From Planctomycetota bacterium (GTDB lineage: Bacteria > Planctomycetota > B15-G4 > SIAN01), in NCBI GenBank assembly GCA_031409275.1, contig JANNXA010000055.1:224001-288000 (forward strand): 64,000 nt of DNA, written 5' to 3'. The translations under genes and the position numbers were made by a program. The notes under the pieces were generated by a model. That model was not told the DNA's origin. It made no database searches and worked only from the letters and a program-made list of their open reading frames with translations. The stretch's first letter is position 1. Each line of letters opens with the position of its first letter. Shown piece after piece: positions 2,708 to 23,076 of the stretch.

Positions 2708-2920
2708 TCAGCCGGCCGACTGGAACTCGTCGAGCCAGGCCATCTGGATCGCTTCCAGGACCTTCTCATTCGACTTCTTCGGATCGCCGACGAAGCCGGG
2801 CAGCGCGCAGACCTGACGGTGCAGGTCGGTGAAGCGGACGGTGAGCGGATCGACGGTCGGCTGGGCGGCATGCAACTGCAGGCCGATCTCTTCGAGGTCC
2901 TTCCAGTCGAGCTTCGTCAT
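2708..2920 (-). CDS. iscX: Fe-S cluster assembly protein IscX (own SD/ATG, but in frame with hscA with no intervening stop)
   Basis: [16 protein letters not shown]...[42 protein letters not shown] matches IscX/YfhJ; AAGGAG SD 6 nt before ATG 2920. Confidence 0.88.
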   Translation of the reverse strand: MTKLDWKDLEEIGLQLHAAQPTVDPLTVRFTDLHRQVCALPGFVGDPKKSNEKVLEAIQMAWLDEFQSAG

Positions 2921-4945: not shown

Positions 4946-5580
4946 GCCGACTCCTTGTCGCGCAGCCCATCGCGCAGGTCGCGCGCGAGGGTGCGGTAGT
5001 ACGCCATGCCGTTCAGTTCACGCCGCAGCGACGCCAGCAGCGTCGTGCGCTCTTCTGGAATCGCCGTCTCGAGCGCCGCAAAGCCGCGCGCCAGCGCCGC
5101 CTCCGCTTCGAGCCGTCGCGCCTCGAAGCGCGCGCGCAAGGCCTCCGCTGCGGCGCCGCCCTGCGCGATCGCGGCATCGACCGCATCACGCTCGTCGAGC
5201 ATCGCCTCGAGGAATCCCGCCGGCACCGACTTGTCCTGATTGGGCCCCGCCCCACCCAGGAGCGTCAACAGGTACTCGGCGCGCTTGTGCGCATCGCGCA
5301 GCACGCCGAACGCTTCATTGACCTGCGCCGCGCCGAGCACGGCACGAGCGCGGACGCCGGGCGCAGCGCCCGCGAGATCGGGATGGAGGTCGCGCGAAAA
5401 GGCGACCACCCGCCGATCGAGCAGCGCCTCGTCCAAGGCGAACTCGCGCGCAAGGCCAAGCGTCGCGAAGTGATCGCGACGTGGATCGTGCGGCTGGAAT
5501 GCGCCGCAAGCACGGCACCGCTGCGGATTCTCGAGCGGTGCGTGGCAGGCCGAACAGGAAGCGATGACGGCGACGTTCAT
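4942..5580 (-). CDS. hscB: Fe-S co-chaperone HscB with N-terminal CxxC...CxxC zinc knuckle
   Basis: CSAC...CRAC, J-domain HPD, NEAFGVLRDAHKRAEYLL; isc operon context. Confidence 0.9.
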   Translation of the reverse strand: MNVAVIASCSACHAPLENPQRCRACGAFQPHDPRRDHFATLGLAREFALDEALLDRRVVAFSRDLHPDLAGAAPGVRARAVLGAAQVNEAFGVLRDAHKRAEYLLTLLGGAGPNQDKSVPAGFLEAMLDERDAVDAAIAQGGAAAEALRARFEARRLEAEAALARGFAALETAIPEERTTLLASLRRELNGMAYYRTLARDLRDGLRDKESA

Positions 5581-5617
5581 GGCGAGATCGACGGCGCAGG
5601 CCGGAGCGGAAGCCCCG

Positions 5618-6001
5618 TCACGCCGAGAACGACGCTCCGCAGCCGCAGCTCCCGGTGGAGCTTGGATTCTTGAAGACGAAGCCGCGCGACGTCAGGTCGT
5701 CGTTGAAGTCGACTTCGGTTCCTTCGAGGTAGAGGAAGCTCTTCGGGTCGACGAAGACGCGCAGGCCCGCCGACTCGAAGATCTCGTCGCCGCGCGCAGG
5801 ACGCGGCTCGAGGTTCATCACGTAGGAGAAGCCCGAGCAGCCGCCGCCCTTCACGCCGAGGCGCAAACCTGCCTCGACGCCGAGCTGCTTCTGCTCGAAC
5901 GCGCGACGCACCTCGCGGGCCGCCTTGTCGCTGACGGTGATGGTCGAAGAGGGCGTGCCCCCTGCCGGCGCATCGGTGGTTGCAGTCGCATCGGCTGCCA
6001 T
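5618..6001 (-). CDS. iscA: A-type Fe-S carrier IscA
   Basis: GGGCSGFSY, DPKSFLYLEGTEVDF, FKNP...CGCGASF; start taken at ATG 6001. Confidence 0.92.
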   Translation of the reverse strand: MAADATATTDAPAGGTPSSTITVSDKAAREVRRAFEQKQLGVEAGLRLGVKGGGCSGFSYVMNLEPRPARGDEIFESAGLRVFVDPKSFLYLEGTEVDFNDDLTSRGFVFKNPSSTGSCGCGASFSA

Positions 6002-6005
6002 GAGA

Positions 6006-6437
6006 TCAGCTGCCCGTCTTCGCCGCGTCGGGCGTGCTCGCTGACCCCGCCGCGTGCGCCTGCTGCTTGCTCTGGTAGTCGGCGAGCGCTGCGCGGATCG
6101 CATCCTCGGCGAGCACCGAACAGTGGACCTTGACCGGCGGCAGCGCGAGTTCCTGCACGATGTCGACGTTGCGGATCTGCAGCGCCTGCTCCACCGTCCG
6201 CCCCTTCACCCATTCGGTGGCGAGGCTCGAAGACGCGATCGCGGAGCCGCAGCCGAAGGTCTTGAACTTGGCGTCCTCGATGACGCCCTTGTCGTTCACC
6301 TTGATCTGCAGTCGCATCACGTCGCCGCATTCAGGCGCGCCGACCACCCCGGTCCCGACATCCGCGGCGCTCTTGTCGAGCGAGCCGATGTTGCGCGGGT
6401 TGTTGTAGTGATCGAGGACCTTGTCGCTGTAGGCCAT
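6006..6437 (-). CDS. iscU: Fe-S scaffold IscU
   Basis: MAYSDKVLDHYNNPRN, GAPECGDVM, FKTFGCGSAIASSS, LPPVKVHCS. Confidence 0.97.
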   Translation of the reverse strand: MAYSDKVLDHYNNPRNIGSLDKSAADVGTGVVGAPECGDVMRLQIKVNDKGVIEDAKFKTFGCGSAIASSSLATEWVKGRTVEQALQIRNVDIVQELALPPVKVHCSVLAEDAIRAALADYQSKQQAHAAGSASTPDAAKTGS

Positions 6438-6489
6438 GGTCTTGTCCTTGCGCGCGGCACGAGGTCGCGCGATGGGTGGATCGGTCGTT

Positions 6490-7710
6490 TCAGTGTTCGG
6501 TCGGGGACCACTTCACCTGGCTGATGTCGATGCCTTCCTTGGCCATCTCGTAGAGCGGCGACATGTCGCGCAGCCGCTTCACCGCGAAGATCACGCGCTC
6601 GGCGGCGAAGTCGACCTCCGCCTCCGTCGTGAAGCGTCCCATGCCGAAGCGGATCGAGGTGTGGGCGAGGTCTTCGCCGACGCCGATCGCGCGCAGCACG
6701 TAGGAAGGCTCGAGGCTCGCCGAAGTGCAGGCGGACCCCGAAGAGACCGCCAGTTCGCTCATCCCCATCATCAGCCCTTCGCCTTCGACGAACGCGAAGG
6801 AGACGTTCAAGTTGCCCGGCAACCGCTGCGTCGGATGGCCGTTCAGGTAGATCTCGTCGAGCGAACCGCGCAGCTTCGACCAGAGCCGTTCGCGCAACGC
6901 GGTGAGTCGCACCGTCTCGCTCGCGAGCTCGGCCCCGGCGATCTCGCAAGCCTTCCCGAGGCCAACGATGCCCGGCACGTTCAGCGTGCCGGAACGCATG
7001 CCGCGCTCGTGGCCGCCGCCGTCGAGTTGCGGCGAGAGGCGCACGCGCGGGTTGCGGCGCCGCACGTAGAGCGCGCCCACTCCCTTCGGACCGTAGACCT
7101 TGTGCGCCGTCATCGAGAGCAGGTCGATGCCCATGCGCTCGACGTCCATCGGGATCTTGCCGACCCCTTGGGTTGCGTCCGTGTGGAAGAGGATGCCGCG
7201 CGCCTTGCAGAGGCGGCCGATCTCCTCGAGCGGGTGGAGCGTGCCGATCTCGTTGTTCGCCGCCATCAGCGACACGAGCACGGTGTCGGGCCGGATCGCC
7301 TTCTCGAGATCGGCGACGTTCACTTGCCCGGACTTGTCGACCGGCAGCAGCGTGACCTGGCAGCCCTCCTGCTCGAGGCGCTTGCACGGGTCGAGCACCG
7401 CCTTGTGCTCGGTCGGCGCCGTGATCAGGTGGCGCCCCTTCTCGCGGTACATCTCGGCGACGCCCTTGATCGCGAGGTTGTTCGATTCGGTGGCACCGCT
7501 GGTGAACACGATCTCCTTCGCGTCCGCACCGATCAGCGTCGCGATCTGCTCGCGCGCGGTCTCCACCGCCTTCTCGGCATCCCAGCCGAACGCGTGGTTG
7601 CGGCTTGCGGCGTTGCCGAACTTGTCGCGGAAGTAGGGCAACATCGCGTCGAGCACGCGCTCATCGAGCGGCGTCGTCGCCTGGTAGTCGAGGTAGATCG
7701 GGGTCTTCAT
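6490..7710 (-). CDS. iscS: Cysteine desulfurase IscS
   Basis: [37 protein letters not shown] and IscS-type C-terminus [12 protein letters not shown]. Confidence 0.97.
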
Positions 7711-7731
7711 GGAGCACTCGCTTCGGATGGT

Positions 7732-8184
7732 TCAGCGGGCGAGCGGCGCGGCGAACGCTTCCGCTACCAGCTGGTCGAAGGTCAGTCCGTTCAACACTTC
7801 GTGGATCTTCTCGTGGACGCGGCGCAGCGGCGCCTTGATGAGGCAGGACGATTCGATCTGGCAACTCGATCCGGGGACCGGCAAGGCGCCGATCGCCGAT
7901 GGCACGCACTCGACGAGTCGCACGTCGCCCTCGAGCGCCCGCAACAGCCCGCCCACCGAGAGCTCATCGGGGGCGATGGCCAGCTCGTAGCCACCATGGA
8001 CGCCGCGTGCCGAGCGGACGAGACCGGCGTGGTGCAAGTCCTTCAGGATGTTGGCGAGGATGGCCGGCGGGATCCGAGTCGAGTCGGCCAGGGCGCGTGC
8101 GCTCAGCGGAACCGAACGTCCGCGCGTGGCGAGGTGCGACACCGCGAGGATCGCGTAGTCGAGCCGTCGTGAGAGCTTGATCAT
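7732..8184 (-). CDS. Rrf2-family transcriptional regulator (IscR-like, three Cys ligands)
   Basis: MIKLSRRLDYA, SARGVHGGYEL, C-x15-C-x5-C; first gene of the isc operon. Confidence 0.9.
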   Translation of the reverse strand: MIKLSRRLDYAILAVSHLATRGRSVPLSARALADSTRIPPAILANILKDLHHAGLVRSARGVHGGYELAIAPDELSVGGLLRALEGDVRLVECVPSAIGALPVPGSSCQIESSCLIKAPLRRVHEKIHEVLNGLTFDQLVAEAFAAPLAR

Positions 8185-8245
8185 GGATTTGGCCTCGCCG
8201 GGGCGCCCCAGGCGGTGCAACCGTCGATGCAACCGTCAGAGGAGG

Positions 8246-9766: not shown

Positions 9767-9882
9767 GATCCGTCCTCCTGCGCCCGCGTCAAGGTGACGC
9801 GCTTTCGCGCGAAACGCAAAGCTTCACCGCAAGCGCAGTGCCCTCCGTGCGCCGCGTGCGGTCGGCGAGTATACGGAGCGCC

Positions 9883-11037
9883 ATGGACGCTGTTGGCGCG
9901 CTCTACCTCGATCACAACGCGACCGTTCCGCTGTTGCCGGAAGTGCGCCGCTGCCTGCAAGCGGCTCTGAACGGAGAGCTCGCCAATCCATCGAGCCTGC
10001 ATGCGGCCGGCGTGCACGCTCGCCGCTCCCTCGACGACGCGCGCGAACAGGTCGCCGCGCTGCTCCACGTTTCCGCGGATGAGATCGTCTTCACGTCGGG
10101 CGGCACCGAGGCAAACCACCTCGCGCTCGCCGGGCCGCTGCTGCCGCGCCCAGAAGGGGCGCACCTGGTCGTCAGCGCCATCGAGCACTCCTCGACGCTC
10201 GCGGCCGCGCGTCGCCTCGCCGAACTCGGCGCGCGCGTCACCTTGGTGCCGCCGAGCGCCAACGGCATCGTCAAGGTCGATGCGATGGTCGCCGCGCTCG
10301 AGCCGCAGACCCGACTCGTCGCCTGCATGGCGGCCAACAACGAGACCGGCGTCTGCCAGCCATTCGTCGAACTGGCGGCAGCGCTCGCGCCGCGCGACAT
10401 CCCGCTCCACGTCGACGCCGTGCAGTGGCTCGGCCGCTTCCCGCTCGACGCCGCGCAGAGCGGCGCGACCACGATCAGCGCCTCGGCCCACAAGCTCGGC
10501 GGACCGCAGGGGGTTGGCGCGTTGTGGGTGCGCCGCGGAACGCGGATCGAGGCATGGATTGGCGGCGGACGACAGGAGCGCGGCCGGCGCGGCGGAACGC
10601 CCCCGCTCCTGCTGCTGATCGGGTTCGCCGCCGCTGCCGCCGCCACGCGATCGCGCCTCGCCGCGCAGCCCGAATCGACTCGCGCCCGCGATGCGTTCGA
10701 GTCCGCTCTCGCCTCCGGCGGACGCTCGTTTCGCGTCGTCGGCAGCGACGCGCCGCGCCTGCCGAACACCTCGCTCGTACTCGCGGAGGGGCACGATGGC
10801 GCGCAATTGGTCACGGCCATGAGTGCGCGCGGCGTCGAGATCGCCAGCGGATCGGCCTGCCAGGCGGGCGCGAGCGAACCCTCGCACGTGCTGCGCGCGA
10901 TGGGAATGTCGGCGGCGAGCGCGCGCTCCGCGGTGCGATTCAGCTTCGGCAGCGCGGACGATGTCGCGGTCGGACAAGCCGCCGCCGATCGCCTCCTCGC
11001 GTTGCTCGACGAACGCGCCCGACGCGTCGCAGGCTGA
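9883..11037 (+). CDS. Second cysteine desulfurase (NifS/IscS-like class V aminotransferase)
   Basis: YLDHNAT, FTSGGTEAN, ANNETG, SAHKLGGP, SGSAC; GGAG SD before ATG 9883. Confidence 0.88.
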   Translation: MDAVGALYLDHNATVPLLPEVRRCLQAALNGELANPSSLHAAGVHARRSLDDAREQVAALLHVSADEIVFTSGGTEANHLALAGPLLPRPEGAHLVVSAIEHSSTLAAARRLAELGARVTLVPPSANGIVKVDAMVAALEPQTRLVACMAANNETGVCQPFVELAAALAPRDIPLHVDAVQWLGRFPLDAAQSGATTISASAHKLGGPQGVGALWVRRGTRIEAWIGGGRQERGRRGGTPPLLLLIGFAAAAAATRSRLAAQPESTRARDAFESALASGGRSFRVVGSDAPRLPNTSLVLAEGHDGAQLVTAMSARGVEIASGSACQAGASEPSHVLRAMGMSAASARSAVRFSFGSADDVAVGQAAADRLLALLDERARRVAG

Positions 11038-11184: not shown

Positions 11185-13176
11185 ATGAAGCGTACCGCCC
11201 CACTCCTCCTCGCCGTGATCGCCCTCATCGGCGGCCTCGCCTGGTGGCTGCATGAACCGACCGAACCCGCGATCGGCCCGGTTCCCAATCGCGTCGCCCG
11301 CGAAGGCGGCAACGTGGCTCGCGTGCCGGATGCGGTGACCGCCGACGCGACGACGCCCGAGGCGATCCGCCAGACCGAGCTGCCGCCGGAAGATCCGAAC
11401 GAACTGCCGGTGATCGATCCCACCGCACCGCCGGGAGCGATCTACGGCCGCATCCTCGATCCAGCCGGCGCGCCGGTGGCTGATGCGGAAGTGGAGCTCG
11501 TGCGCGGCCCCGCCGCGGCGATCAACATCCCGAGCCTCTACACGCGGCTGAATCTGCTGGTGCGAACCGACGCCGCCGGAAACTACCGCTTCAACAGGGT
11601 CACTCCCAACGACGACTACATCATCGTCGCGAGCCACCCCGACTACGGCGACTGCGAGGCGGGGCCCATCGTGGTCGCCCCCGCCACCGAGCAACCGGCC
11701 GGCGATCTGCGCTTGCGGGACGGCGTGATGGTCGAGGGGTTCGTGCGCTGCGACGGCCGTCCCCTGCAGAACGCCGTCGTCATCCTCAGCAATGCGATGG
11801 AACGGCTGCGCAAGCTGCGCCCCGACGGTCCTCACCCGCCCGACGCCGAGCCCTTCGAGCTGCGCACCGCCACCGATGCGAATGGCCACTACTCGTTCAC
11901 CTCGGCGCCGTTCTCGAGCTTCGAGATCACCGCCGAACTCGACGGCTACTCGCGCATCACGAAGAACTCGCAGACGAGCTTCCTCGGCCGCAGCTCGAAA
12001 GAGCACAAGATCGATTTCGACCTGACGTTGGCGCGGCGCATCACGGGCAGCGTCACCGACGAGAGCAAGAACCCGATCGCGGGCGCGAAGCTGGCCGCCA
12101 CCATCGCGAACCAGAGCTTCCGGTGCGAAGCCGAGGCGCTCACCGACGGTGCTGGCCGCTTCACGATCGAGGCGCTCGCCGAAGGGCAGTACTTCCTCCA
12201 GGCGAGCTGCGACGGCTTCTCCGAATCGCACCAGCAGCAAGTGAACGCCGGCAGCGAAGGTCTCGTGATCGAGTTGCGGGTGCAGGGCAGCGCGGTCGGC
12301 GTCGTCGTCGATGAGGAGAGCGGCGCGCCCATTCCCGAGTTCACGCTGGCGATCCAGCAGCAATACAAGGGACGCGGCCCGATCGACATGAAGCAGAACC
12401 TGCGCTACCACGACAGCGGCGGCCGCTTCGAAGTGAAGAACCTCGATCCAGGTCGCTACACGGTCGAAGGCTCGGCGGCCGGTTATGCCACGAGCGTCTC
12501 CGATGAGTTCGAGGTCACGCGCGGCCAGGTCACGGCCGGCGTCCGCATCGAGATGAACAAGGGCGGCAAGGTCGTCGGCATCGTCGTCGATCGCGACCAC
12601 AAACCGATCCGCAACGCGCTGGTCAGCCTCCGCGACAACGGCACCAAGGACAACCAGGTGCTCGAGATCTTCTCGCAGATGTCGGCGCGAGGAAGCGGGA
12701 TGCCGAAGTTCCGCACCCAGGAAGATGGCCGCTTCACGCTCGATCTGGTGGTGCCGGAGACCTACCAGGTCGCGGTTCGCCACAACCAGTTCGCCGGTCA
12801 GCTTCGGGACGACGTCACCGTGCGCAAGAACGAGACGGTCGACGTCGGTGAGCTGATCCTGCTGCGTGGCGCGCGCATCTCTGGGACCGCCTACGACCTC
12901 GACGGCAAGCCGCTGGTGGGCGCGACCATCACCGGGATGGCCGGGAAGTCGAGCGGCTACAAGTCGACGCGGACCAACAACGACGGCTTCTACGAACTGC
13001 TCAGCATGAACGACGGCGAGTACACCATCACGATCAACAGCTTCCAGTCGAACCCCCCCATGAACCCGCTCGCGACGCTGTCACTCGCGAAGAACAGCCG
13101 TCAGACCGTGCAGGTCTCCGATGGCGACGACGTCACGGTCGACCTGCGCCTCTCGAAGGACAAGCCGAAGGAGTAA
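11185..13176 (+). CDS. Membrane-anchored protein with about six carboxypeptidase-regulatory-like (prealbumin-fold) repeats
   Basis: N-terminal TM/signal; repeated GxVxDxxGxPIxxAxV...TDxxGxF/Y...GxYxV units; coding-like codon usage. Confidence 0.8.
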   Translation: MKRTAPLLLAVIALIGGLAWWLHEPTEPAIGPVPNRVAREGGNVARVPDAVTADATTPEAIRQTELPPEDPNELPVIDPTAPPGAIYGRILDPAGAPVADAEVELVRGPAAAINIPSLYTRLNLLVRTDAAGNYRFNRVTPNDDYIIVASHPDYGDCEAGPIVVAPATEQPAGDLRLRDGVMVEGFVRCDGRPLQNAVVILSNAMERLRKLRPDGPHPPDAEPFELRTATDANGHYSFTSAPFSSFEITAELDGYSRITKNSQTSFLGRSSKEHKIDFDLTLARRITGSVTDESKNPIAGAKLAATIANQSFRCEAEALTDGAGRFTIEALAEGQYFLQASCDGFSESHQQQVNAGSEGLVIELRVQGSAVGVVVDEESGAPIPEFTLAIQQQYKGRGPIDMKQNLRYHDSGGRFEVKNLDPGRYTVEGSAAGYATSVSDEFEVTRGQVTAGVRIEMNKGGKVVGIVVDRDHKPIRNALVSLRDNGTKDNQVLEIFSQMSARGSGMPKFRTQEDGRFTLDLVVPETYQVAVRHNQFAGQLRDDVTVRKNETVDVGELILLRGARISGTAYDLDGKPLVGATITGMAGKSSGYKSTRTNNDGFYELLSMNDGEYTITINSFQSNPPMNPLATLSLAKNSRQTVQVSDGDDVTVDLRLSKDKPKE

Positions 13177-13222
13177 CGATCTCGAGCTGCGATCGCGACG
13201 CGCGGCGGCACGGACGATCCCA

Positions 13223-14629
13223 TCAGGCGAACGCCGGCACCGGAAGCGCGGTCCGACCGATCGCCAATCCGCGTGGCTCCAGCGCAACGTCGATGGCCCC
13301 ACGCCGGCGCGCGGTGAATACGAGGCGCCATCCGATCCGGCGCGCGAGGCGCCGAGCAAGGATCAGTTCCTCGACTCCGCGTCCGCGCGCGGGGCGGCCG
13401 AATCGCAGCACCCGCAGGCGCAGCGCGCGACCTTCGGCCGTCGCACGCACGCGGATCACGGTGCAGCCTTCGGCGCGCGCTCGCCGCGACTTCGCCAGCG
13501 CCGCGAAGAGCGCCCACAGCAGCGCCCTCAGCAGATCGGGATCACCCTCGCACCATTGCAGTCCGTCGGCGTCGAGTCGAAGCCGGCGCCCGTGGAGTTC
13601 CCCTGCCACCGCGGCCGCGGCCTGACGCGCCACCACTGCAAGATCGCAGGAGCGGCGCAGCTGCTGACGCTCCTGCGCCGGCGCTTGCGCACCGTTCGCC
13701 CGAGTGGCCAGCATGGTCTCGAGGTGATTCAGGACTTCCGCGCCGCCCGCGACCGCTTCTTCGAGCGCCGCCGGCAAACGCGGCCCGTGGCGCTCGAGGT
13801 GCGCAAAGAGGCTGCGCAGGAACGCGAGCGGTCGCTTCGCCTCTTCCTCGAGCCACGTGGCCTGATCGCGCAATCGCCGTCGCTCGCGGACGTAGCGCCC
13901 CTGCTCGTCGACGAGCCGCGCGGCGTAGCGCATGAGCGGCGCACGTGCCGGTGCCGCGTCGCCTGGCGCGCCAGGCGGCTCGATCGGTGCCGCCGCCGTC
14001 GCCGGCAGCGGCGCGGAACGGTTGAACGACTCGTCGAGCGCGATCTGCAGCGCCGACAGTCCGATGCCGCAGCCATCGAGCGCGAGTTCGCCGTGCGCCC
14101 GCGTGGCTCCGCGACGCAACAACTCGAGCAGCGATCGCACCACCTCTTCGCCGTCGAGCGCATCGGTGCTGAACGACGGGAAGCGGCCGGACCCGACCAC
14201 CGACTCGAGCTCCTGGGCCGCGACGAAGTCGCCGCCCGCGCGCCGATTGATCAGCAGGACGCCGGGCATCGCGCTTCGACCCGCGCTGCGCAGGCGCTCG
14301 AGCAGCCAGGCGTACGCGATGAGATTGTCGCGCAGGCGCTCGCGACGCGGATCCGCGACGAAGCAGACGCCGTCCGCGTCACGCATCAGCTGTTCTGCGC
14401 GAGCGTTCTCCTCGTCGATCGGATCGAATTCGACGAGCTCGACTTGCAGGGTCGCGAGCGCACCTGGCACGGCGAGCGGCAGCGAGGTCCACTCGCGACT
14501 GCGCTCGGCGCTGCGGCTGCCGACGCGTTCCCGAATGCGCGCGAGGACTTCGCTCTTTCCGGCCCGCCGTGGACCGCACAGCAGGAACCGCAATGCGATG
14601 ACGCCGCCTTCCGCCTCGTATCGAGCCAT
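13223..14629 (-). CDS. MglA-like small GTPase domain fused to degenerate HisKA/HATPase domains
   Basis: LLCGPRRAGKS P-loop and DADGVCFVADPRRERLRDN resemble MglA; C-terminal half has EEEAKRPLAFL and GDPDLLRALLWAL; GGAG SD before ATG 14629. Confidence 0.65.
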   Translation of the reverse strand: MARYEAEGGVIALRFLLCGPRRAGKSEVLARIRERVGSRSAERSREWTSLPLAVPGALATLQVELVEFDPIDEENARAEQLMRDADGVCFVADPRRERLRDNLIAYAWLLERLRSAGRSAMPGVLLINRRAGGDFVAAQELESVVGSGRFPSFSTDALDGEEVVRSLLELLRRGATRAHGELALDGCGIGLSALQIALDESFNRSAPLPATAAAPIEPPGAPGDAAPARAPLMRYAARLVDEQGRYVRERRRLRDQATWLEEEAKRPLAFLRSLFAHLERHGPRLPAALEEAVAGGAEVLNHLETMLATRANGAQAPAQERQQLRRSCDLAVVARQAAAAVAGELHGRRLRLDADGLQWCEGDPDLLRALLWALFAALAKSRRARAEGCTVIRVRATAEGRALRLRVLRFGRPARGRGVEELILARRLARRIGWRLVFTARRRGAIDVALEPRGLAIGRTALPVPAFA

Positions 14630-14771
14630 GCCCACGCTCCGTTGGCGGCGCCCCGACGTCGCCCCGGACGCGCCGACGGCTCGTTGATCGACTGACGAGT
14701 GGCCGGGATGCAGGTCGCTGCGCCGACGGCGCCGGAGAAACGATTGCTGGTGCCTCCGCACCGGATCGTCC

Positions 14772-16079
14772 TCAACGCGCGGTTGCGCCCGCGGGGAGTT
14801 CGATCAGGCCGCGGCCCGGACGCTCGCTGCGCCCGAGTCGCCAGAACTCGGCGGCCGCCCGTTCGCACACCACGCGCCAGTCCGTGGCGACCGTCGTTGC
14901 GGCGCTCTGGCGCAGTGCGTCCGCGAACTCGCCGCACAGGAGCAGGTCGTCGCGCTCCCGTCCTGCCGCCTGATCGACGAGGTCGCGCCAACTCGCGGTC
15001 CACTCCGCGAGCCGCGCCTCGTTCCCCGTCGACTCCGTGCGCGGCGCCTGCGCGAGCAGTTCGGCGAGACGCGCCCGAAGCGCTGCACGAGTCGCGAGCG
15101 GCGGCGGCGGAAACGGCAGCGCCGCTGCGGTCCGCTGCTTCTGCTGCGACGGACCACGCCATTCGTCGATCGCCCGCTCGAGGCCGTCATCGAAGGTCGC
15201 GTTGGTCGAGGTCGCGCCAAACCAAGGCAGGCCGAGCCGCAAGAGCAGACCGCCCGCCGCGGTCGCCGCCGCGCCGGACGGAAGCTCGCGACAGCGCGTC
15301 AGCGCCGCGCAGAACCACCGCGTCTCGCACGCGCGCCGCTGCTGCAGCTCGACTTCGCCGCGCTCGGAGTCGGACGCCGCGTCGGCCTCCGCCATGGCGA
15401 TCGGAACGACCCAGGTCGCGACGAGACCGCGAACCGCCACCAACTCCTGGCGCGCCAGCTCGATCTCGAGCCAGCCATCGGCGGCGACCTCCTCGGCGAG
15501 CGGCGCCTGCACCCCGCCGGCAAGAACCCCAGGGAAGAGCGCGACCCCCTGCTCGAACGCGCCCGCAGCGCGCAGCGTCGCCTCGAGCTCGACGAAGGAG
15601 AGGGGCGCGCGCGGTGCGCCACGGCGCAGCGCTCGCCAGCCGGGCTGCGACCACGGCAGAGTTCGTTCGCGCAACGTCTCGAGTTCGGGGCGCCACGGTG
15701 CGAGCTCGCCGACGCGCTGCTCGAAGGTGGCGCCAAGGAGCTGGACGGCTCCGTCATCCCCTTCAACCGCCGCGAACAGGAGCGCCGCTCGCAAACGCGG
15801 CAGCTCCAGCAGCGCTCGCTCGAGCGCGACCGCCGGCGCGGGCGGCCAGCGATTCAGCGCCGCCAGCGCCGCCACGACGTCCGCCGGTGCAAGCGCACGG
15901 CGCAACTGCGCCTCGGCCGCCGACCGACGCGCCGGCTCCGACGCATCGAGCTCGACCCGCCACGCATCGAGGCGCGGGTCGGAGCCGTTCGACGCGACCG
16001 CTTGCGGGCATGGCATCCGCGCGCTCGCCGGCGTCGCGGCCGCGACCAGGAGCCACGCCGCCACCAGCGCACGCCTCAT
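14772..16079 (-). CDS. Hypothetical secreted alpha-helical protein
   Basis: Signal-peptide-like MRRALVAAWLLVAAATPASA; ATGA overlap with the kinase stop. Confidence 0.6.
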   Translation of the reverse strand: MRRALVAAWLLVAAATPASARMPCPQAVASNGSDPRLDAWRVELDASEPARRSAAEAQLRRALAPADVVAALAALNRWPPAPAVALERALLELPRLRAALLFAAVEGDDGAVQLLGATFEQRVGELAPWRPELETLRERTLPWSQPGWRALRRGAPRAPLSFVELEATLRAAGAFEQGVALFPGVLAGGVQAPLAEEVAADGWLEIELARQELVAVRGLVATWVVPIAMAEADAASDSERGEVELQQRRACETRWFCAALTRCRELPSGAAATAAGGLLLRLGLPWFGATSTNATFDDGLERAIDEWRGPSQQKQRTAAALPFPPPPLATRAALRARLAELLAQAPRTESTGNEARLAEWTASWRDLVDQAAGRERDDLLLCGEFADALRQSAATTVATDWRVVCERAAAEFWRLGRSERPGRGLIELPAGATAR

Positions 16080-19000
16080 TCGACGAGCTTCCCGCGCAGC
16101 TCGACCCGCTCGATCTGCAGCTCGGTCAGGCTGCACAGCTGAACCGCATCCTTCGCGCGCGCGGTCGGCAGAGTCGCCTGGGTTTCGTAGACGACGTCGC
16201 CGTCCAGCGCCACCTCGATTCGCACCGTGCCAGCGCCTGGATCGGGGAGCCATCGCACCTCGAGAACGTAACGGCGGCCGCGTTCGAGACCGACATCGAC
16301 GACCTTGCCGACCGCAGGCTCGCTCTGGTCATAGATCGGGTCGTAGAAGCGCTGGGTGCTCTCTTCGAGTGCGCCGACCCAGGCCGCGAGTTGCGGCGTG
16401 TAGCTCTCGCCTCTCGGCTCTTCGGGCCGGAAGAAGGCGGCGCAGGCGGGGCCGAGACGAAGCCCGACGTAGTGCGGATCGTCGGGTGCGCCGAGCGTCG
16501 GCAGCAGTTCCACGCGCAAGCTCGCCGGCGCGCGCCGATCGAGCGGGAACGGAAACGTCGCACTCGGCGCCGGGCCGCTGCGGCCGCTCCCGCCGCCGAC
16601 GAAGACGAGGCGCCCGTTCTCCACGCGCAGCGCGTTGCCGCTGACGTTCCAGTCCTGGCCCTCCGTCACCTGATCGAACGCATAGACCACGCGGACCACG
16701 CCATCTTCGGCGAGCGTCCGTTCGCTCGCGTTGCGAGCCACCTGATCGAGCAGCGCGCGCCGTCGCCCCGTTCGATCGAGGTCGCTGAGCAGCGCCTCGA
16801 GGTGTGCGCGATCCGATTGCGCCGCTCGACCGGCGGCGGTGTCGCCGTAGCGGAGCAGGTCGCGCCAGGCCGCGCGCGCCGTTTCGACGTCGCCGGCCGC
16901 GATCGCCGCGTCGAACTGCGCGCGCCGCTCGTTCGCGGCGCCCTCGCGCTGCTCGCGGCGCGCCGCATCGCTCTGCATCTGGTCCTGCAGCGAACGATGG
17001 AGCGCGTCAGCGACCGGCGCACCCGCCAGCCCGTTCAGCTCGAGCCCCAGCGCGCTGCGCTCCTTGGCGTCCCCGAGGAGAAAACGGACGAAGAGGCGCG
17101 CCGGTGGCGCGGTCACCGTCGCGTTCACCGACTTCTCGAGCGACGCCAACGCGAGATCCTCGACCGTCAGGCCACGCCTGGATCCGACCGCGAACGCGTC
17201 GCCGGCGCCGTCGAACTGCACCTTGCCGCGAATGCCGATCCCCTGGCGATCGCGCACGTCGACCTCCTCACCCGCTCGATCGCGCAGGTTCTGGCGCGCG
17301 TGGCCGAACACGGCGATCAAGTCCGAGACGACGCCGCTCCATGCGGCGCGCTCCGCTTCGGGAAGATCGGACTGAGCAGCGATCGCCTCGGCCGCCTCCG
17401 CGATCCGACGATCGGCCAGGAACGGGACGATGCCGGGCCGCCCGCCGACCCCATCGAGCAGCTGCGCGCGCGCCGTGGCCTCGCGATCGCGCCGCGCCTG
17501 CAAGGCCAGTTCCGCGAGGTCGCGCGCCAGCAGCTCCCAGCGACTCTGCAGCTCGGCCGGAAGCGCGCCGATGGCGACCAGCCCGTCCCATGCGGCACGG
17601 TTCGCCTCCTCGACGTCGGCGCGGCGTTTTGCCAGGTCGACGACGGCGCCCTCGCGAGCCTCCGCCAACGCCTTCTGCGCGGCCCGCTCGACCTCGAACT
17701 GCAGATCGCGGCGCGCCCTCGCCACCCGCCCGGCGAGCGAGTCCGCGAGGATCGACACGAACGACGCGGTCGGATCACGATCGAATTCGACGCGCGTCGA
17801 GTCGGGCCATCCGCGCTGCAGCACGGCAGCGGAGACGTCGCTCGCCACGGCGACTCCGGCGCCGCTCAACACGGCGATCGTCGCGGCGGCACAAGCGTTC
17901 GCCTCCTCCTCCGGATAGGACGCCAGCCGCTGCTGCGCCTCCCCGAATCGCTGCGCCTCGAGCAGCGCTTGCACTTCATCGTCGAGCGCGGTCCGTCGGG
18001 CGAGCAGCTCCTGTCGCACCTTTCGGCGCACCTCCTGCTCGAGGGCCTCCTGCTGAGACGTGGCGTTGGCGCGCGCGGACTGGAGCCACGGCTCCACGTC
18101 GACTTCGGCGCCCACGAGCCGTGTCCGCAGCGAAGCGGGCGCGGCCGCCTCGAAGGCGCGCTCGAGTTCAGCGTCGAGACGCTCTCGCGCTTGCGCGAAG
18201 TCGCCACGCGCGAGCGCCGCGCGGGCTGCCGAGAGGGCCAGCGGCGCCGCCGCGCGCAGTTCCGTCTCGAGGGCGACGCTGGCCGCCGACTTCAGGTCGA
18301 CGCGGGAGAGGCTCGAGACGCTGGTGAGCTGCCCGTCCCGCTTGAGCTCGCCGATGCGCGCCAGCACTTCCGCCGCCGGCCGGGCGCCGCCTCGCCAGCC
18401 TTCCGCGAGTTCGTTCAGCAGCGCTTCCTCACGTTGGCGCGCGTCGCTCCAGTCGACATCGCTGCGGTGGTCGCCCCGCCACAGGAACAGCGCCACGAGC
18501 GCGACCACGAGCGCCGCCGCCGCGGCGATCCATGGGCCGCGACTGCTGCGCGGCGGCGGCTCGGCGGCTTCCTGCCAGGAGAGACCGACCTCTTGCGCCT
18601 GTTCGGGCGCGGTGAGTGCCGCGCGTACCCGCTCGAGGTCTTCGAGCAGCTCCTCGCTCGACTGGTAGCGACGGCGGACATCTTTCGCGAGCAGCCGCGC
18701 GAGCATGCGCGAGAAGCCTTGGGGCAGGCCGGGTTGCAGCTGCTCGGGTGGGCGCGGCACCGAGTAGAGCACCTCGTGCAGGATCTCGGCGACCGACTCG
18801 CCGCGCAGCGGCGGGTGGCCCGTCGCGAGGTGGTAGAGCGTGGCCCCGAGGCTGTAGAGGTCGCTGCGCAGATCGACGCGGCGCGGGCTCCTCACCTGTT
18901 CGGGAGACATGTACTGCGGCGTGCCGACGGTGATGCCGTCCTGGGTGAGCGAACGGTCGCGAGTGGCGCGCGCGAGCCCGAAGTCGGTGAGCTTCACCGC

Positions 19001-19453
19001 CCCATCTTTCGCCAGCAGGATGTTGCCAGGCTTCACGTCGCGATGGACGACGCCGTGGCGCGCCGCATGAGCGAGCGCCAGCGCGACCCGCTCGCCGATC
19101 AGGAGGACCTCGCGCAGCGGGAACGCTCCGCGATCGACCAGCAACTGCTTGCAGCTCTGCCCCTCGACGAGCTCCATCACGAAGTAGACGAGGTCGCCTG
19201 CTTCGCCGAAGTCGATCGAGCGCACGATCGCGGGATGGTCGAGCCGCGAGAGGACGCGCGCCTCCTTCGTCAGACGCGCCAGCGCGAGACCGGGGTCGAG
19301 ATCATCGCGGCGCAGCACCTTGAGGGCGACCATGCGGTCAAGGCCCTTGTGGCGCGCCTTGTAGACCGAGCTCATGCCTCCCGACCCGAGCAGTTCGAGC
19401 ACTTCGTAGCCGGGGATCGGCTGGGTCAGCATGCTGGCGCGCTCGTGCTTCAC
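16076..19453 (-). CDS. Hanks-type Ser/Thr protein kinase with TM helix, long helical region and C-terminal beta-sandwich
   Basis: GSGGMSSVY, VALK, HRDVKPGN, DFGLA, GTPQYMSPEQ, SDLYSLG; TM IAAAAALVVALVALFLW. Start is GTG 19453 (SD GGGAGG) or ATG 19432. Confidence 0.92.
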   Translation of the reverse strand: MKHERASMLTQPIPGYEVLELLGSGGMSSVYKARHKGLDRMVALKVLRRDDLDPGLALARLTKEARVLSRLDHPAIVRSIDFGEAGDLVYFVMELVEGQSCKQLLVDRGAFPLREVLLIGERVALALAHAARHGVVHRDVKPGNILLAKDGAVKLTDFGLARATRDRSLTQDGITVGTPQYMSPEQVRSPRRVDLRSDLYSLGATLYHLATGHPPLRGESVAEILHEVLYSVPRPPEQLQPGLPQGFSRMLARLLAKDVRRRYQSSEELLEDLERVRAALTAPEQAQEVGLSWQEAAEPPPRSSRGPWIAAAAALVVALVALFLWRGDHRSDVDWSDARQREEALLNELAEGWRGGARPAAEVLARIGELKRDGQLTSVSSLSRVDLKSAASVALETELRAAAPLALSAARAALARGDFAQARERLDAELERAFEAAAPASLRTRLVGAEVDVEPWLQSARANATSQQEALEQEVRRKVRQELLARRTALDDEVQALLEAQRFGEAQQRLASYPEEEANACAAATIAVLSGAGVAVASDVSAAVLQRGWPDSTRVEFDRDPTASFVSILADSLAGRVARARRDLQFEVERAAQKALAEAREGAVVDLAKRRADVEEANRAAWDGLVAIGALPAELQSRWELLARDLAELALQARRDREATARAQLLDGVGGRPGIVPFLADRRIAEAAEAIAAQSDLPEAERAAWSGVVSDLIAVFGHARQNLRDRAGEEVDVRDRQGIGIRGKVQFDGAGDAFAVGSRRGLTVEDLALASLEKSVNATVTAPPARLFVRFLLGDAKERSALGLELNGLAGAPVADALHRSLQDQMQSDAARREQREGAANERRAQFDAAIAAGDVETARAAWRDLLRYGDTAAGRAAQSDRAHLEALLSDLDRTGRRRALLDQVARNASERTLAEDGVVRVVYAFDQVTEGQDWNVSGNALRVENGRLVFVGGGSGRSGPAPSATFPFPLDRRAPASLRVELLPTLGAPDDPHYVGLRLGPACAAFFRPEEPRGESYTPQLAAWVGALEESTQRFYDPIYDQSEPAVGKVVDVGLERGRRYVLEVRWLPDPGAGTVRIEVALDGDVVYETQATLPTARAKDAVQLCSLTELQIERVELRGKLVE

Positions 19454-19469
19454 GCGTTCCCTCCCCGAT

Positions 19470-21017
19470 TCAGCGTCGTGTCGGCGCCGCGATCGACTCT
19501 CGCAATGCCGCATCGAGACGCTCGGCCGGGATCCCCAGCGCGGCGAACGCTTTCGCGTGTGCCGCCGCCGCCTCGGCGCCGAGCGCGGGGACCTGCCCTT
19601 TCGGCCACTGCTCGCGCAACGCCGCCAGCATGGCGAGGAAGCCGTCCTGCTTCTGCGTCGACAGCCAATCGACCACCACCATCGACTTCGCGACCTCCTC
19701 GGCGGTGATGGTCGACAGATCGCGCTTCAGGATCGGCCCGAACGGCGGATCCTTGCCTTCCTTGATCGCGCGCACCGCGTCGTCGAACCAGCGGTCGCGG
19801 GAGAGCAGCTCCTCCTTGCGGACCCCTTCGGCGCCGTAGCGGCGGCTCGAGATGCAGGAGATCGCATTGCGTCCGAGCACGCGGTGCTCGGTCCAGGCGG
19901 CGAACCCCTCGTCGAGCCAGGTCGGGAGGAACTTCCAGTTGTAGCCGTGGCGGTTCAGGAGGACGTGACCCAGGTGATGCACGGTATGGGCGACCGTGTC
20001 GTCGACGTGGCGAGCGCCACGAAACGTGGCGGAGGTGCCGGTTGGATCCCACCAATAGAAGCCGTCGACCTTCGCCGCTCCTTCGGCCCAGCGCGCATCG
20101 ACCTTCTTCTCTTGGCGCGAGAAGAAGCGCGCGAAGAGGCCGAAGTCGTCCCGCGTATCGACGACCACCGCGAGCGCCTTGTGGCCACCGATCCACGCCA
20201 GGTCGGTGACCGACTCGCGCAGCGCGCCCGCCGCCAGCGCGAAGCTCTTCTCCGACGCCTCCTGGAGCGCGTGCGCATGCGCCTTTCCGAACGCGCTCGC
20301 GACGACGAAATGGTCGCTCGCATCGAAGGTCAGCGCGAGCGACGCCTCCTTGCCGAAGTCGACGGCGCGGCGGCGCGCCAGCACCTCGCTCGCCACCACC
20401 CATTCGGATCCGACGCGCTCGAGTCCGCGCGCCCGCTGCGCGTCGTCGGCGGAAAGCCACCGCCCGTCGATCTGAACGTCACCGCGTTCGAGGTGCTCCT
20501 TCTCTTCTGGCGTCACGAATCGGCCGCTGTAGGGCACGAGGCCGCGCGCCGCCATCGCCGCGGTCTCGTCCGCTTTCACCTTCGCATCGCGCTCGGCCGG
20601 GGTCATCCACTGCCCCTCATGCCGCACCCGTCCGCGCGCGAGGTTGGCGCCCTCGTGCTGCGGATCACGGGCAAGGGCCTTGTCGAGCAGCCGCTCGCGA
20701 TCGCGTCGAAGCGCTTTCGCGCGAGCGAACTCCGCGAGTTCGAACCAAGCGTCGGCGGAAGCATCCGCCTTCATCGCCTTCTCGCGCTCGGCGAGCTCCT
20801 CGGCCGCCGTGAGCCCCTTCTCGATCCTGGAGATGCGCGAACGCTCGATCACCATGCGGCCGAGCGCGGTGTCGATCGTGATGGAGCCCTTTTCCTCGGC
20901 GACCACCTTCCCCTCGAGCTTGCCGCCGTCGCGCAGATGGACCGTGTCGGCGCGCGCCACCGACGCGACGGCAAGTGCCAGCACCATCCCGCAGACAAAC
21001 GCGACGCGCCGGCTCAT
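19470..21017 (-). CDS. Secreted peptidase MA/gluzincin-like protein with HHLGH motif
   Basis: Signal peptide, ADTVHLRDGGKLEGKV domain, TPR-like segment, VHHLGH...LPTWLDEGFA. Confidence 0.7.
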   Translation of the reverse strand: MSRRVAFVCGMVLALAVASVARADTVHLRDGGKLEGKVVAEEKGSITIDTALGRMVIERSRISRIEKGLTAAEELAEREKAMKADASADAWFELAEFARAKALRRDRERLLDKALARDPQHEGANLARGRVRHEGQWMTPAERDAKVKADETAAMAARGLVPYSGRFVTPEEKEHLERGDVQIDGRWLSADDAQRARGLERVGSEWVVASEVLARRRAVDFGKEASLALTFDASDHFVVASAFGKAHAHALQEASEKSFALAAGALRESVTDLAWIGGHKALAVVVDTRDDFGLFARFFSRQEKKVDARWAEGAAKVDGFYWWDPTGTSATFRGARHVDDTVAHTVHHLGHVLLNRHGYNWKFLPTWLDEGFAAWTEHRVLGRNAISCISSRRYGAEGVRKEELLSRDRWFDDAVRAIKEGKDPPFGPILKRDLSTITAEEVAKSMVVVDWLSTQKQDGFLAMLAALREQWPKGQVPALGAEAAAAHAKAFAALGIPAERLDAALRESIAAPTRR

Positions 21018-23065
21018 GTCTCCGGGTCCCCGTCGCCCGTCGCCGCCGGAGCGACCGCACCATCCGGCGGAAGCTCCTCGACGCCGCCGTCCACCGTCTC
21101 TCCTGGTGCGAGCGGGCGACCGTCGCCGCCGATGCGGTACTTCTCGAGCTTGCGCTGCAGCGCGAAACGCGAGATGCCGAGCACGTCAGCGGCGCGGCTC
21201 TTGTTGCCGGTCGCGTCCTCGAGCGCGCGGCGGATCTCGGAGCGCTCGAGCGCTTCGACCCGGCCGGTGAGCCCTTCGCGCAGCGGCGGGTCGGCCGGCG
21301 TCGCCATCGCGCGACGGATCCGCTCGGAGAGCCGATCGAGGGTGATCGGATCGTCCGAAAAGGTGATCAGCATGCGGATCTCGTTCTCGAGTTCGCGCAC
21401 GTTGCCCGGCCAGTGGTAGGCGCACAGCGCGTCGAGGACCTCCGGACGCATCTTGATGCCGGCGCGACCCGACTCGCGACCGAAGCGCTTCAGGAAGGTG
21501 TCAGCGAGGAGCGGGATGTCGTCCTTGCGGTCGCGCAGCGGCGGCAACCGCATCGGCAGCACGTTCAGGCGGTACATCAGGTCTTCGCGGAACTCGCCTT
21601 TCGCGACGATCTCCGCCAGGTCCTTGTTCGACGCGGAGATGATGCGCACGTCGACGTGCACCGACTCGCGGCCGCCGACCGGCCGAAACTCGCCCTCCTG
21701 CAGGAAGCGCAGCAGCTTCTTCTGCACCTCAGGGCTCATGTCGCCGACCTCGTCGAGGAAGAGCGTCCCCTTGTGCGCCGTCTGCAGCAGCCCCTTCTTG
21801 CTTTGGCGCGCGCCGGTGAAGGCGCCGCGTTCGTAGCCGAAGAGTTCGCTCTCGAGCAGCGAATCGGGCAGCGCGGCGCAGTTCTCGGAGACGAAGCGCT
21901 GTCCGGCGCGCGGACCGTTCTCGTGGATCGCGCGCGCGATCAGTTCCTTGCCGGTGCCGCTCTCGCCGGACACATGTACCGGGAACTCGCTCGCGACCAC
22001 GCGATCGAGGAGCCGGAAGATGTCCATCATCGGCTTGCTGCGACCGACGATCCGCGAGTAGTCGTTGCCGCCGGCCGCAGCGCGCTCCCGCAGGCGCGCG
22101 CGCACCTCCACGAGCTCGACTTCCTGGACCGCGACGCGTCGCTTCAACTCCTCGTTCAGCAACCGGACGCGCTCCTGGCTCTCCTCGAGCTGCTTGTTGG
22201 CGTCGACGAGGTGCGTGACGAGCCGCGCGCGGTGGACCGCGACGGCCGCCTGTCCGGCGAACGCCTCGGCGAGGCGCAGGTCCTCGTCGTCGAACGCGCC
22301 CTTCGTCATGCGATGGTCGACGTAGACCGCGCCGATCGTCTCGCCCTGCGCGGTCAGCGGCACGACGAGCACCGAACGCAATCCGAGGTTGGTGATCGAC
22401 TGGACGCCCTCGAAGCGCTGGTCGTCGCCGGCGTTCACCGAGAGGAGCGACTTGCCGCTCTCCAGCACGCGCTGCGCGATCGAACGCGAGATCGCGAGCT
22501 CCGGCTCTGGCACCTGGTCGCCGTCGAAGTTGCGCGCGGCGACGAAATGGAGCGCCTCATCGCCCTCGCGCAGGATGAGGAAACCGCGTTCGGCGCCCGA
22601 AAGCTCGATCAGCGAATCGACCACCAGGTTCAGCAGCTTCTCGACGTCGCTCTCGGTCGAGAGCGCCTGCGAGATCCGTTGCAGCCGCAGGTGGTTGCTG
22701 CGCTCGCGCGTCAGGCGGCGCACGAGGTCGTCGTTGGGAAGCGTCGGTCGCGCGATCAGCGAGGTCTCGTTGGGGTCGGGCTCGCGCTCGTAGTAGATGC
22801 GCGTCGAACCGATCGAGACCACGTCACCGGTGCGCAAGTCGGAGCTGAGGATCTGCTGGCCGTTCAGGAAGGTGCCGTTCTGGCTGCCGACGTCGACCAC
22901 GGTGGCGTGGCCGCCCGGCTCGATCTCGATCCGGCAGTGAATTCGCGAGGCGAGGCGATCGCCGATGCGCAGATCAGTGCCGGTTCCGCGACCGATCAGG
23001 ATCGTGCTCTTGTCGAGTGAGAGTTCGCGACGTTCGCCTTCGGCATGGACGATGAAGCGTGGCAT
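21014..23065 (-). CDS. FHA-GAF-AAA+ sigma54-dependent Fis-family transcriptional activator
   Basis: FHA (IGRG, SRIHC, GSQNGTFLNG), GAF, GESGTGKEL, ESELFGYERGAFTGA, FLDEVGDM, WPGNVRELEN and HTH GNKSRAADVLGISR. Confidence 0.93.
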   Translation of the reverse strand: MPRFIVHAEGERRELSLDKSTILIGRGTGTDLRIGDRLASRIHCRIEIEPGGHATVVDVGSQNGTFLNGQQILSSDLRTGDVVSIGSTRIYYEREPDPNETSLIARPTLPNDDLVRRLTRERSNHLRLQRISQALSTESDVEKLLNLVVDSLIELSGAERGFLILREGDEALHFVAARNFDGDQVPEPELAISRSIAQRVLESGKSLLSVNAGDDQRFEGVQSITNLGLRSVLVVPLTAQGETIGAVYVDHRMTKGAFDDEDLRLAEAFAGQAAVAVHRARLVTHLVDANKQLEESQERVRLLNEELKRRVAVQEVELVEVRARLRERAAAGGNDYSRIVGRSKPMMDIFRLLDRVVASEFPVHVSGESGTGKELIARAIHENGPRAGQRFVSENCAALPDSLLESELFGYERGAFTGARQSKKGLLQTAHKGTLFLDEVGDMSPEVQKKLLRFLQEGEFRPVGGRESVHVDVRIISASNKDLAEIVAKGEFREDLMYRLNVLPMRLPPLRDRKDDIPLLADTFLKRFGRESGRAGIKMRPEVLDALCAYHWPGNVRELENEIRMLITFSDDPITLDRLSERIRRAMATPADPPLREGLTGRVEALERSEIRRALEDATGNKSRAADVLGISRFALQRKLEKYRIGGDGRPLAPGETVDGGVEELPPDGAVAPAATGDGDPET

Positions 23066-23076
23066 GGCGCGGATCC

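Follow-up and report, generated by a model that had tools for sequence, protein, structure and literature searches.

A fusion of an MglA-type GTPase fold and a histidine-kinase fold with eroded catalytic motifs in both halves from a family of Planctomycetota

Gene and genomic context

The window analysed is a stretch of 64,000 nucleotides from a Planctomycetota bacterium (contig JANNXA010000055.1, positions 224,001 to 288,000). On its minus strand, at 13223..14629, translation and homologue alignment place a gene for a 468-aa protein, P0001, in which an MglA-fold domain, a linker, a coiled coil with a DHp hairpin and a HATPase-fold domain follow one another, as assigned by profile and fold searches. 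All peptides quoted in the initial annotation, which had described an MglA-like GTPase joined to a pseudo-histidine kinase, are present in this translation, and Met1 is invariant in the aligned homologues (12/12). Positions 13000-15000 were matched with zero differences by a separate contig assembly, which may be that of the source sample. Contigs from three DNA runs of one freshwater-sediment study, one of them perhaps the source of the window, contained no frameshift and no letter differing from it. None of the sequencing runs listed was an RNA run containing the locus, and a scan of 13000-15000 for promoters and terminators returned none.

Three neighbouring genes were used as context only: an upstream gene with a signal-peptide-like start (14772..16079, minus strand), which shares an ATGA overlap with the stop of the kinase gene; a membrane Ser/Thr protein kinase (16076..19513, minus strand), syntenic at degenerate and intact loci; and a convergent carboxypeptidase-regulatory-like repeat gene (11185..13176, plus strand), which served as the downstream synteny marker. 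A FHA-GAF-sigma54 activator (21014-23194) heads the gene run that includes the Ser/Thr kinase and P0001; it is 85-95% identical in five of the six relatives compared over full loci and 70% identical in G006, and a link between kinase and FHA protein is plausible. An isc cluster lies at 2708-8232 (Rrf2, IscS, IscU, IscA, HscB and HscA, with IscX, PF04384, fused to the HscA C terminus), and a second IscS-like gene at 9838-11037. Collinearity spans 21 kb, isc genes included, and the neighbours therefore name no partner. The synteny with Ser/Thr kinases that had been proposed as a check does exist, as part of this block with its unrelated isc genes; a functional unit with the kinase was considered and found no support beyond synteny. 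In two relatives a secreted peptidase-MA-like gene is inserted directly downstream of the fusion gene on the same strand (L012:11442-12695 and L045:2827-4073).

No polarity or motility gene adjoins the P0001 gene, no roadblock gene lies in the window, and none of the 46 receiver-domain matches of the genome falls in it, which counts against the interpretation preferred below. The initial annotation had rightly noted the absence of an adjacent MglB/roadblock gene, yet an intact mglA is present on another contig of the same genome, flanked by two roadblock matches over the Pfam cut-off. The encoded MglA (L002:1480-2592, G000:C27) has a long tail of low complexity whose hydrophobic last helix probably spans the membrane, a tailed form that recurs across the order; flanking its gene are those for a roadblock protein, for MglB and for a TPR-like protein with a roadblock-like stretch at its end. 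Seven PilT matches over cut-off were found in the genome, and MglB-like genes, all under the curated cut-off, in 8/8 genomes of the family. A search for an active paralogue that might form a heterodimer, as in ChrS/HrrS, was negative, the N-half HMM finding only P0001 and mglA in the genome.

The N-terminal half

Profiles were needed because P0001 as a single sequence matched no Pfam or NCBIfam family. A 12-sequence profile of P0001 homologues recovered Thermus MglA with E 7.6e-11 over residues 3-178 and M. xanthus MglA with E 6e-5, and other small GTPases only above 0.09. An AlphaFold2 model computed from the 12 degenerate sequences only (pLDDT 72) aligned to M. xanthus MglA (6izw) with Z 19.3 and an rmsd of 2.5 Å over 173 residues, KRAS scoring lower at 15.4. 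By profile and structure alignment, residues 1-181 (14087..14629, minus strand) have the MglA-type small GTPase fold, as had been supposed from alignment by eye. With Group 1 MglA of M. xanthus and Thermus thermophilus (6izw, 5ymx, 3t12; Z 19-21) this domain has in common the fold, the extra N-terminal strand, the P-loop and the beta4-alpha3 motif, and MglA is its best profile match.

Motifs were counted in 15 close relatives (18 rows minus three near-duplicates). The P-loop, GPRRAGKS (residues 19-26, 14552..14575, minus strand, from the relatives' alignment), agrees with the G1 pattern GxxxxGK[T/S] of Group 1, and G19, P20, G24, K25 and S26 are invariant in 15/15 relatives at identities down to ~35%, in line with the retained P-loop noted earlier. 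The definition of Group 1 also includes a G2 Thr with an intrinsic Arg finger, according to the accessible part of its description (PMC4316618). In P0001 this Thr and the FFD patch are gone from the eroded switch I/beta2 region (residues 37-50, 14480..14521, minus strand), where 10 residues are missing relative to intact orthologues; the span between the P-loop Lys and a conserved Pro is 26-28 residues in close relatives vs 36-37 in intact orthologues. In the motif alignment the G3 sequence TVPGQ is replaced by EFDPI (residues 67-71, 14417..14431, minus strand), a reading already made in the initial annotation; its Gly and Gln occur in 0/15 close relatives, and Glu67, at the first G3 position, in all 15. 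The G4 motif, [NT]KxD in Group 1, reads NRRA (residues 128-131, 14237..14248, minus strand). This was correctly reported for P0001 itself and is a minority form, NRRD being found in 10/15 relatives (Asn 14/15, Lys 0/15, Asp 10/15). Trp108, Arg130 and Arg172 are conserved in 15/15, and no part of the G domain is less conserved in the degenerate set than its two switch regions (0.34 and 0.37 vs 0.55). Group 1 proteins are single domains of at most 240 aa, usually encoded beside mglB; P0001 has 468 aa, is joined to a kinase fold and has no roadblock gene nearby.

In MglA, Mg is held by Thr54 and Asp58, Arg53 and Gln82 are catalytic, and MglB is bound by Phe56/57/59, as given in the accessible text of PMC6785124. 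P0001 is without equivalents of the Thr, Asp, Gln and Phe-patch residues, and the shortened loop leaves no clear counterpart of Arg53; the G domain should therefore not hydrolyse GTP or switch in the manner of MglA, while retaining the phosphate-binding loop.

The C-terminal half

Past alpha5, alignment and model place a two-helix extension common to intact planctomycete fusions (residues 182-203, 14021..14086, minus strand) and a variable Pro/Ala-rich linker with low pLDDT (residues 204-230, 13940..14020, minus strand; dN/dS 0.66 at 205-228). A coiled coil with a DHp-like hairpin follows (residues 231-313, 13691..13939, minus strand), and then a HATPase-fold domain (residues 326-452, 13274..13654, minus strand), the order of domains typical of the HisKA family. 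With the 12-sequence model as query, Foldseek ranked histidine-kinase DHp+CA structures first (RetS 7n0e, E 2.2e-8). Among 9618 ORFs of the same genome, the best non-self match of the C-half HMM was a HAMP histidine kinase (E 1.7e-4). Comparison by hhalign with 28 kinase cores, the best-scoring of 35 HATPase loci in the genome, gave E 3.4e-5 over 187 columns and E 0.14 for the reversed control. A second structure model is no independent evidence of the kinase fold, because its input alignment included intact kinases. The monomer models, with pTM 0.42 and 0.50, do not fix the domain arrangement, which also counts against the preferred interpretation.

HELRTP of the kinases aligns with EEAKRP of P0001, and hence Glu262 occupies the position of the phospho-acceptor His; the close relatives have Glu (11), Asp (3) or a gap (1) there, with Arg266 and Pro267 conserved in 15/15. 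Both N-box Asn are replaced (Ala373 and Ala377). G1, DxGxG in HisKA kinases, is reduced to RFG with loss of its Asp, the ATP lid is removed by a 20-residue deletion, and G2 reads GRGVEE in place of GxGLG; the stretch from G1 to G2 measures 21 residues in degenerate and 41 in intact proteins. The HisKA and HATPase resemblance without phospho-His and N-box Asn, claimed in the initial annotation, is thus borne out by Foldseek, hhalign and the motif alignment; its statement that the G-boxes are lacking is too strong, as a reduced G1 and two of three Gly of G2 remain beside the deleted lid. At the phosphatase motif, E/DxxT/N by the accessible text of PMC12963549, the close relatives have ExxR (14/15) or DxxR (1/15) and the intact orthologues DxxK. 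From these residues, autokinase and phosphatase activity of P0001 would be very unlikely.

P0001 has a kinase fold from which the catalytic motifs are absent and a GTPase fold whose catalytic motifs are lost; judged by its residues, it resembles a histidine pseudokinase plus a pseudoGTPase and would be placed outside both Group 1 MglA and the HisKA kinases. The term double pseudoenzyme, used for it before, suits the kinase half. For the G domain it holds for MglA-type hydrolysis and switching, whereas the invariant P-loop, Asn128 and the new invariant Glu67 suggest that nucleotide may still be bound.

Distribution and descent

The homologue search recovered 12 proteins, P0001 included, among 7987 scored candidates, with 48-80% identity over 96-100% of the length, and the fusion is accordingly conserved, an outcome on which the initial annotation had made its reading depend. 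The two taxon-named proteins among the 12 are Planctomycetes MAG proteins. A GTDB-wide pattern scan found three loci, all in Planctomycetota, and HMMER over 1.84 billion representatives found nine clusters at E up to 1e-30. The top ESM Atlas cluster (0.97, 502 aa, unnamed, with Arf assigned to 66% of its members and most of the 16 members of known phylum in Acidobacteriota) is a lead only. Among split or stand-alone short forms (30-165 aa) a single match, a 162-aa fragment, was obtained.

Genome searches, which covered 61 relatives at first and afterwards each of the 42 genomes in the order, yielded a graded series. Degenerate fusions were found in six of the eight genomes of the own family and not found in the other two, of 70 and 78% completeness. 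In the sister family the fusion gene was found in 6/12 genomes and not found in the other six: G018, G034 and G036 have a complete fusion with all kinase motifs and G1-G4, G026 has it in part on split contigs, and in G015 and G030 it is cut after the DHp. The fusion gene was not found in 22 genomes of the three other families of the order. In total, ~25 degenerate sequences were obtained, confined to one family among the sampled genomes, and we know of no cultured host.

The intact gene of G018 is flanked as that of P0001 is, by the genes for the sigma-54 activator and the Ser/Thr kinase and by convergent ones for carboxypeptidase-repeat and Zn-peptidase proteins. The same locus in G006 carries an intermediate which keeps GKTT, TVQG and NKLD and whose kinase half is dead; the placement of intermediates at this locus rests on G006, the others being P0136-P0150. 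One locus thus holds intact (G018), truncated (G015, G030), intermediate (G006) and degenerate alleles. The presence of intact sister-family orthologues there had escaped the initial annotation. The phospho-acceptor His, both N-box Asn and the Thr, Gly and Gln of TVPGQ are present in 11/11 intact orthologues vs 0/15 degenerate proteins. The P-loop Lys is also lost in three of seven intermediate relatives (P0140, P0146 and P0147), so that nucleotide binding would not be required across the wider clade. With the intact sister-family fusions (P0016-P0026; MglA, coiled coil, HisKA, HATPase) P0001 shares the architecture, the helical extension after alpha5 and the chromosomal position; they keep HDLRKP, NxIKY, DxGxG, GxGLG and G1-G4, all of which P0001 has lost.

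Several observations were made on these and related proteins. In P0016-P0026 and the G018 gene (L029:949-2514) the Arg finger of MglA is replaced by Thr/Ser, and Lys occupies the phosphatase position (HDLRKP); these proteins would therefore be slow GTPases joined to kinase-only cores. Reading the listed ORFs of L042 by eye over ~8 kb showed no receiver gene. The G015 and G030 genes (L043:9100-10146 and L044:1270-2316) end past a DHp-like hairpin at the locus of P0001. P0033 and P0039 keep all G motifs, Arg finger included, and have neither His nor N box. From these cases the kinase half of MglA-kinase fusions seems to have been lost more than once. With the intact protein as query, ten more of its kind were found among the best 120 of 163 matches, along with MglA-(GAF)-kinase fusions that make up a wider group. 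Two further MglA fusions from the phylum, read by eye, add to MglA a zinc-ribbon-like segment plus a Ser/Thr-kinase-like domain (L032:1492-3555, G053) or pentapeptide-like repeats (L033, G049). When 401 genomes across the phylum were searched with the intermediate P0142, the matches outside G006 were no more than generic MglA-level ones; as this query also missed the P0001 copy in its own genome, the result does not demonstrate absence.

All 24 degenerate rows fall in a single clade (100/100) of a G-domain tree with 74 rows. The MglA of the same genome is placed elsewhere, which rules out P0001 as a decayed copy of that mglA. Degenerate and intact orthologues lie on one side of a branch with support of only 78/38, a value that counts against the preferred interpretation. 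A quick kinase-half tree (65 rows, long branches) groups degenerate and intact proteins together vs 36 other kinases with SH-aLRT 95. Mainly because of synteny and shared architecture, P0001 is likely to descend in place from an intact MglA-kinase fusion.

Selection and shift of conservation

Against the closest genome pair, dN/dS was 0.196 for the whole gene, 0.091 for the G domain, 0.169 for the DHp, 0.225 for the CA domain and 0.655 for the linker, values that show purifying selection. The gene lies within the range of eight neighbours compared in the same pair (0.09-0.49); deeper pairs (0.37-0.58) were excluded because of saturated dS. By this one genome pair the pseudokinase half is maintained by selection (0.17 in the DHp, 0.23 in the CA domain).

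The difference in identity, degenerate minus intact, averaged -0.01 over 412 columns, with -0.45 in switch I and -0.48 in switch II and with +0.30 in alpha3 and +0.33 in both alpha4-beta6 and DHp residues 271-305. Compared with contiguous windows, the shifts in switch II and the DHp are in the extreme 0.5%, that in switch I in the extreme 3%, and those in alpha3 and alpha4-beta6 in the top 5-6%. The segments were picked after inspection of the data and the kin are not independent, and the shift is therefore descriptive. It reads as a probable loss of switching with a gain of fixed binding surfaces.

Interpretation

Each half has known counterparts. According to the accessible text on them, PsmA (Streptomyces) and DivL (Caulobacter) resemble P0001 in having a kinase fold without working autophosphorylation, PsmA further in its Glu at the His position, its impaired ATP site and its lack of a phosphatase motif (PMC12963549). 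The ATP lid of P0001, in contrast to theirs, is deleted outright; P0001 is soluble and without a receiver, and neither PsmA nor DivL is described there with a Ras-like domain. ChpT and Spo0B, as far as their available descriptions go, likewise join a DHp to a degenerate CA domain and need an acceptor His at the canonical position, where the P0001 family has Glu/Asp. Among pseudoGTPases, AAGAB and the p190RhoGAP domains have a GTPase fold with eroded motifs like P0001, and AAGAB binds its partners off the switches; these proteins are eukaryotic, and AAGAB, in what could be consulted, binds no nucleotide, whereas the P0001 family keeps the P-loop. The actinobacterial conservon (CvnA kinase and CvnD MglA-family GTPase) also links a histidine kinase with a GTPase of the MglA family, but its proteins are separate, active and accompanied by a roadblock partner, with the kinase in the membrane (PMC4316618, accessible part). 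The same text states that the census of prokaryotic small GTPases excluded sequences > 240 aa. In the literature within reach, which excludes most subscription papers, no paper on MglA-kinase fusions or on a protein with both modules silent was found.

With the catalytic residues of both halves lost and the gene yet conserved, P0001 is likely a non-catalytic adaptor. Our preferred reading, to which we give an even chance, is that this fusion of MglA fold and histidine-kinase fold, deprived of the residues for autophosphorylation and for MglA-type hydrolysis and switching, is a likely in-place descendant and a likely adaptor, dimeric and loaded with nucleotide, for the docking of a signalling partner. 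Specificity for dimerisation and for receivers resides in DHp hairpins. The hairpin of P0001 would dimerise as in kinases, and its newly conserved part, residues 271-305, may bind a receiver domain or another kinase and alter its phosphorylation in the way of DivL, which acts on DivK/CckA (PMC9491836, as accessible). GKS, Glu67 and NRR(D) would still bind Mg-nucleotide in the G domain, with the nucleotide a structural cofactor rather than part of a switch, and the Arg-rich face of alpha3, alpha4-beta6 and alpha5 may hold a second partner or pack inside the dimer. Parallels are offered by PsmA, a His-to-Glu pseudokinase with a lid incompatible with ATP and a polar role at hyphal tips (PMC12963549, in part), and by AAGAB, which binds its partners through a non-switch surface (PMC12490416, in part). 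The scaffold role named in the initial annotation is a reasonable inference; a role in polarity would derive from MglA homology only. With mglA-mglB and seven PilT in the genome, a first guess for the pathway would be surface motility or polarity.

The adaptor role could be the same with a G domain that binds no nucleotide (class i pseudoGTPase) and a P-loop kept for the fold. The MglA residues that hold Mg, the G2 Thr and the beta2 Asp, are lost (PMC6785124, accessible text), the G4 Lys has become Arg and, in P0001 itself, the G4 Asp Ala, and 3/7 intermediates do without the P-loop Lys; set against the P-loop fixed in all close relatives and the acidic Glu67 fixed at the first G3 position, this variant is unlikely. 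The same invariance of GKS and Glu67 would also suit a rewired NTPase, in which Glu67 and Asp69 form a Walker-B-like pair and the G domain toggles the pseudokinase through the coiled coil, and MglA groups 2-3 are active despite deviant G4 motifs in the accessible account (PMC4316618). It is nevertheless improbable, the catalytic Gln, G3 Gly, G2 Thr and Arg finger all being absent and both switch regions the least conserved of the domain. A slim chance is given to P0001 as a decoy in the MglA circuit, its basic alpha5 binding the acidic helix at the C terminus of MglB, or else a RomR-like helix, and so tuning genuine MglA. Arg172 (25/25 degenerate rows) aligns with a basic residue of MglA alpha5 that contacts the MglB helix, Lys185 in M. 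xanthus (PMC6785124, accessible text), but the Lys181 position is Leu and the roadblock-binding Phe patch is lost; MglB-like genes are found throughout the family, also where the fusion was not found, so that co-occurrence says little.

A decaying relic, that is, a gene persisting under weak constraint after its kinase became dispensable and without a new job, would account for the stepwise loss of motifs along the tree, the long branches, the truncations that arose independently at this locus in G015 and G030 and the relatives in which the gene was not found. Full-length open frames in 12/12 first matches, dN/dS of 0.09-0.23 in the folded parts vs 0.66 in the linker, and several segments more conserved than in intact kinases already disfavour it, and it is quite improbable. 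Highly improbable is a phosphotransferase like ChpT or Spo0B in which a relocated His277 relays phosphate between receivers. His277 occurs in 20/25 degenerate rows vs 0/11 intact ones, and ChpT itself has a kinase fold in which the CA domain is degenerate (PMC9981736, in its accessible part); the canonical His is gone, however, and position 277 is mostly Leu/Met in intact orthologues (10/11), a pattern suggestive of a buried position, at a distance of 15 residues from the usual acceptor.

In its widest form the adaptor reading is tentative and, in our estimate, more doubtful than probable: a G-protein-gated histidine kinase would have turned in place and stepwise into a double pseudoenzyme, whose nucleotide-loaded, switchless Ras-like domain and His-to-acid, lid-less kinase core would bridge the MglA polarity circuit and two-component signalling by binding alone. 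The intact, truncated, half-eroded and fully eroded alleles would then record the order of loss, kinase chemistry before GTPase switch, and the new binding surfaces.

Histidine pseudokinases in bacteria and pseudoGTPases in eukaryotes were each already known, and P0001 combines both kinds. The sister family still has intact orthologues at the locus of P0001, so that the proteins before, during and after loss of catalysis can be compared biochemically, and the allele set is a natural series for how pseudoenzymes arise. The surfaces that gained constraint are pinpointed to DHp residues 271-305, alpha3 and alpha4-beta6. Taken together, the family suggests that an MglA-kinase fusion has a job for which phosphotransfer is not needed.
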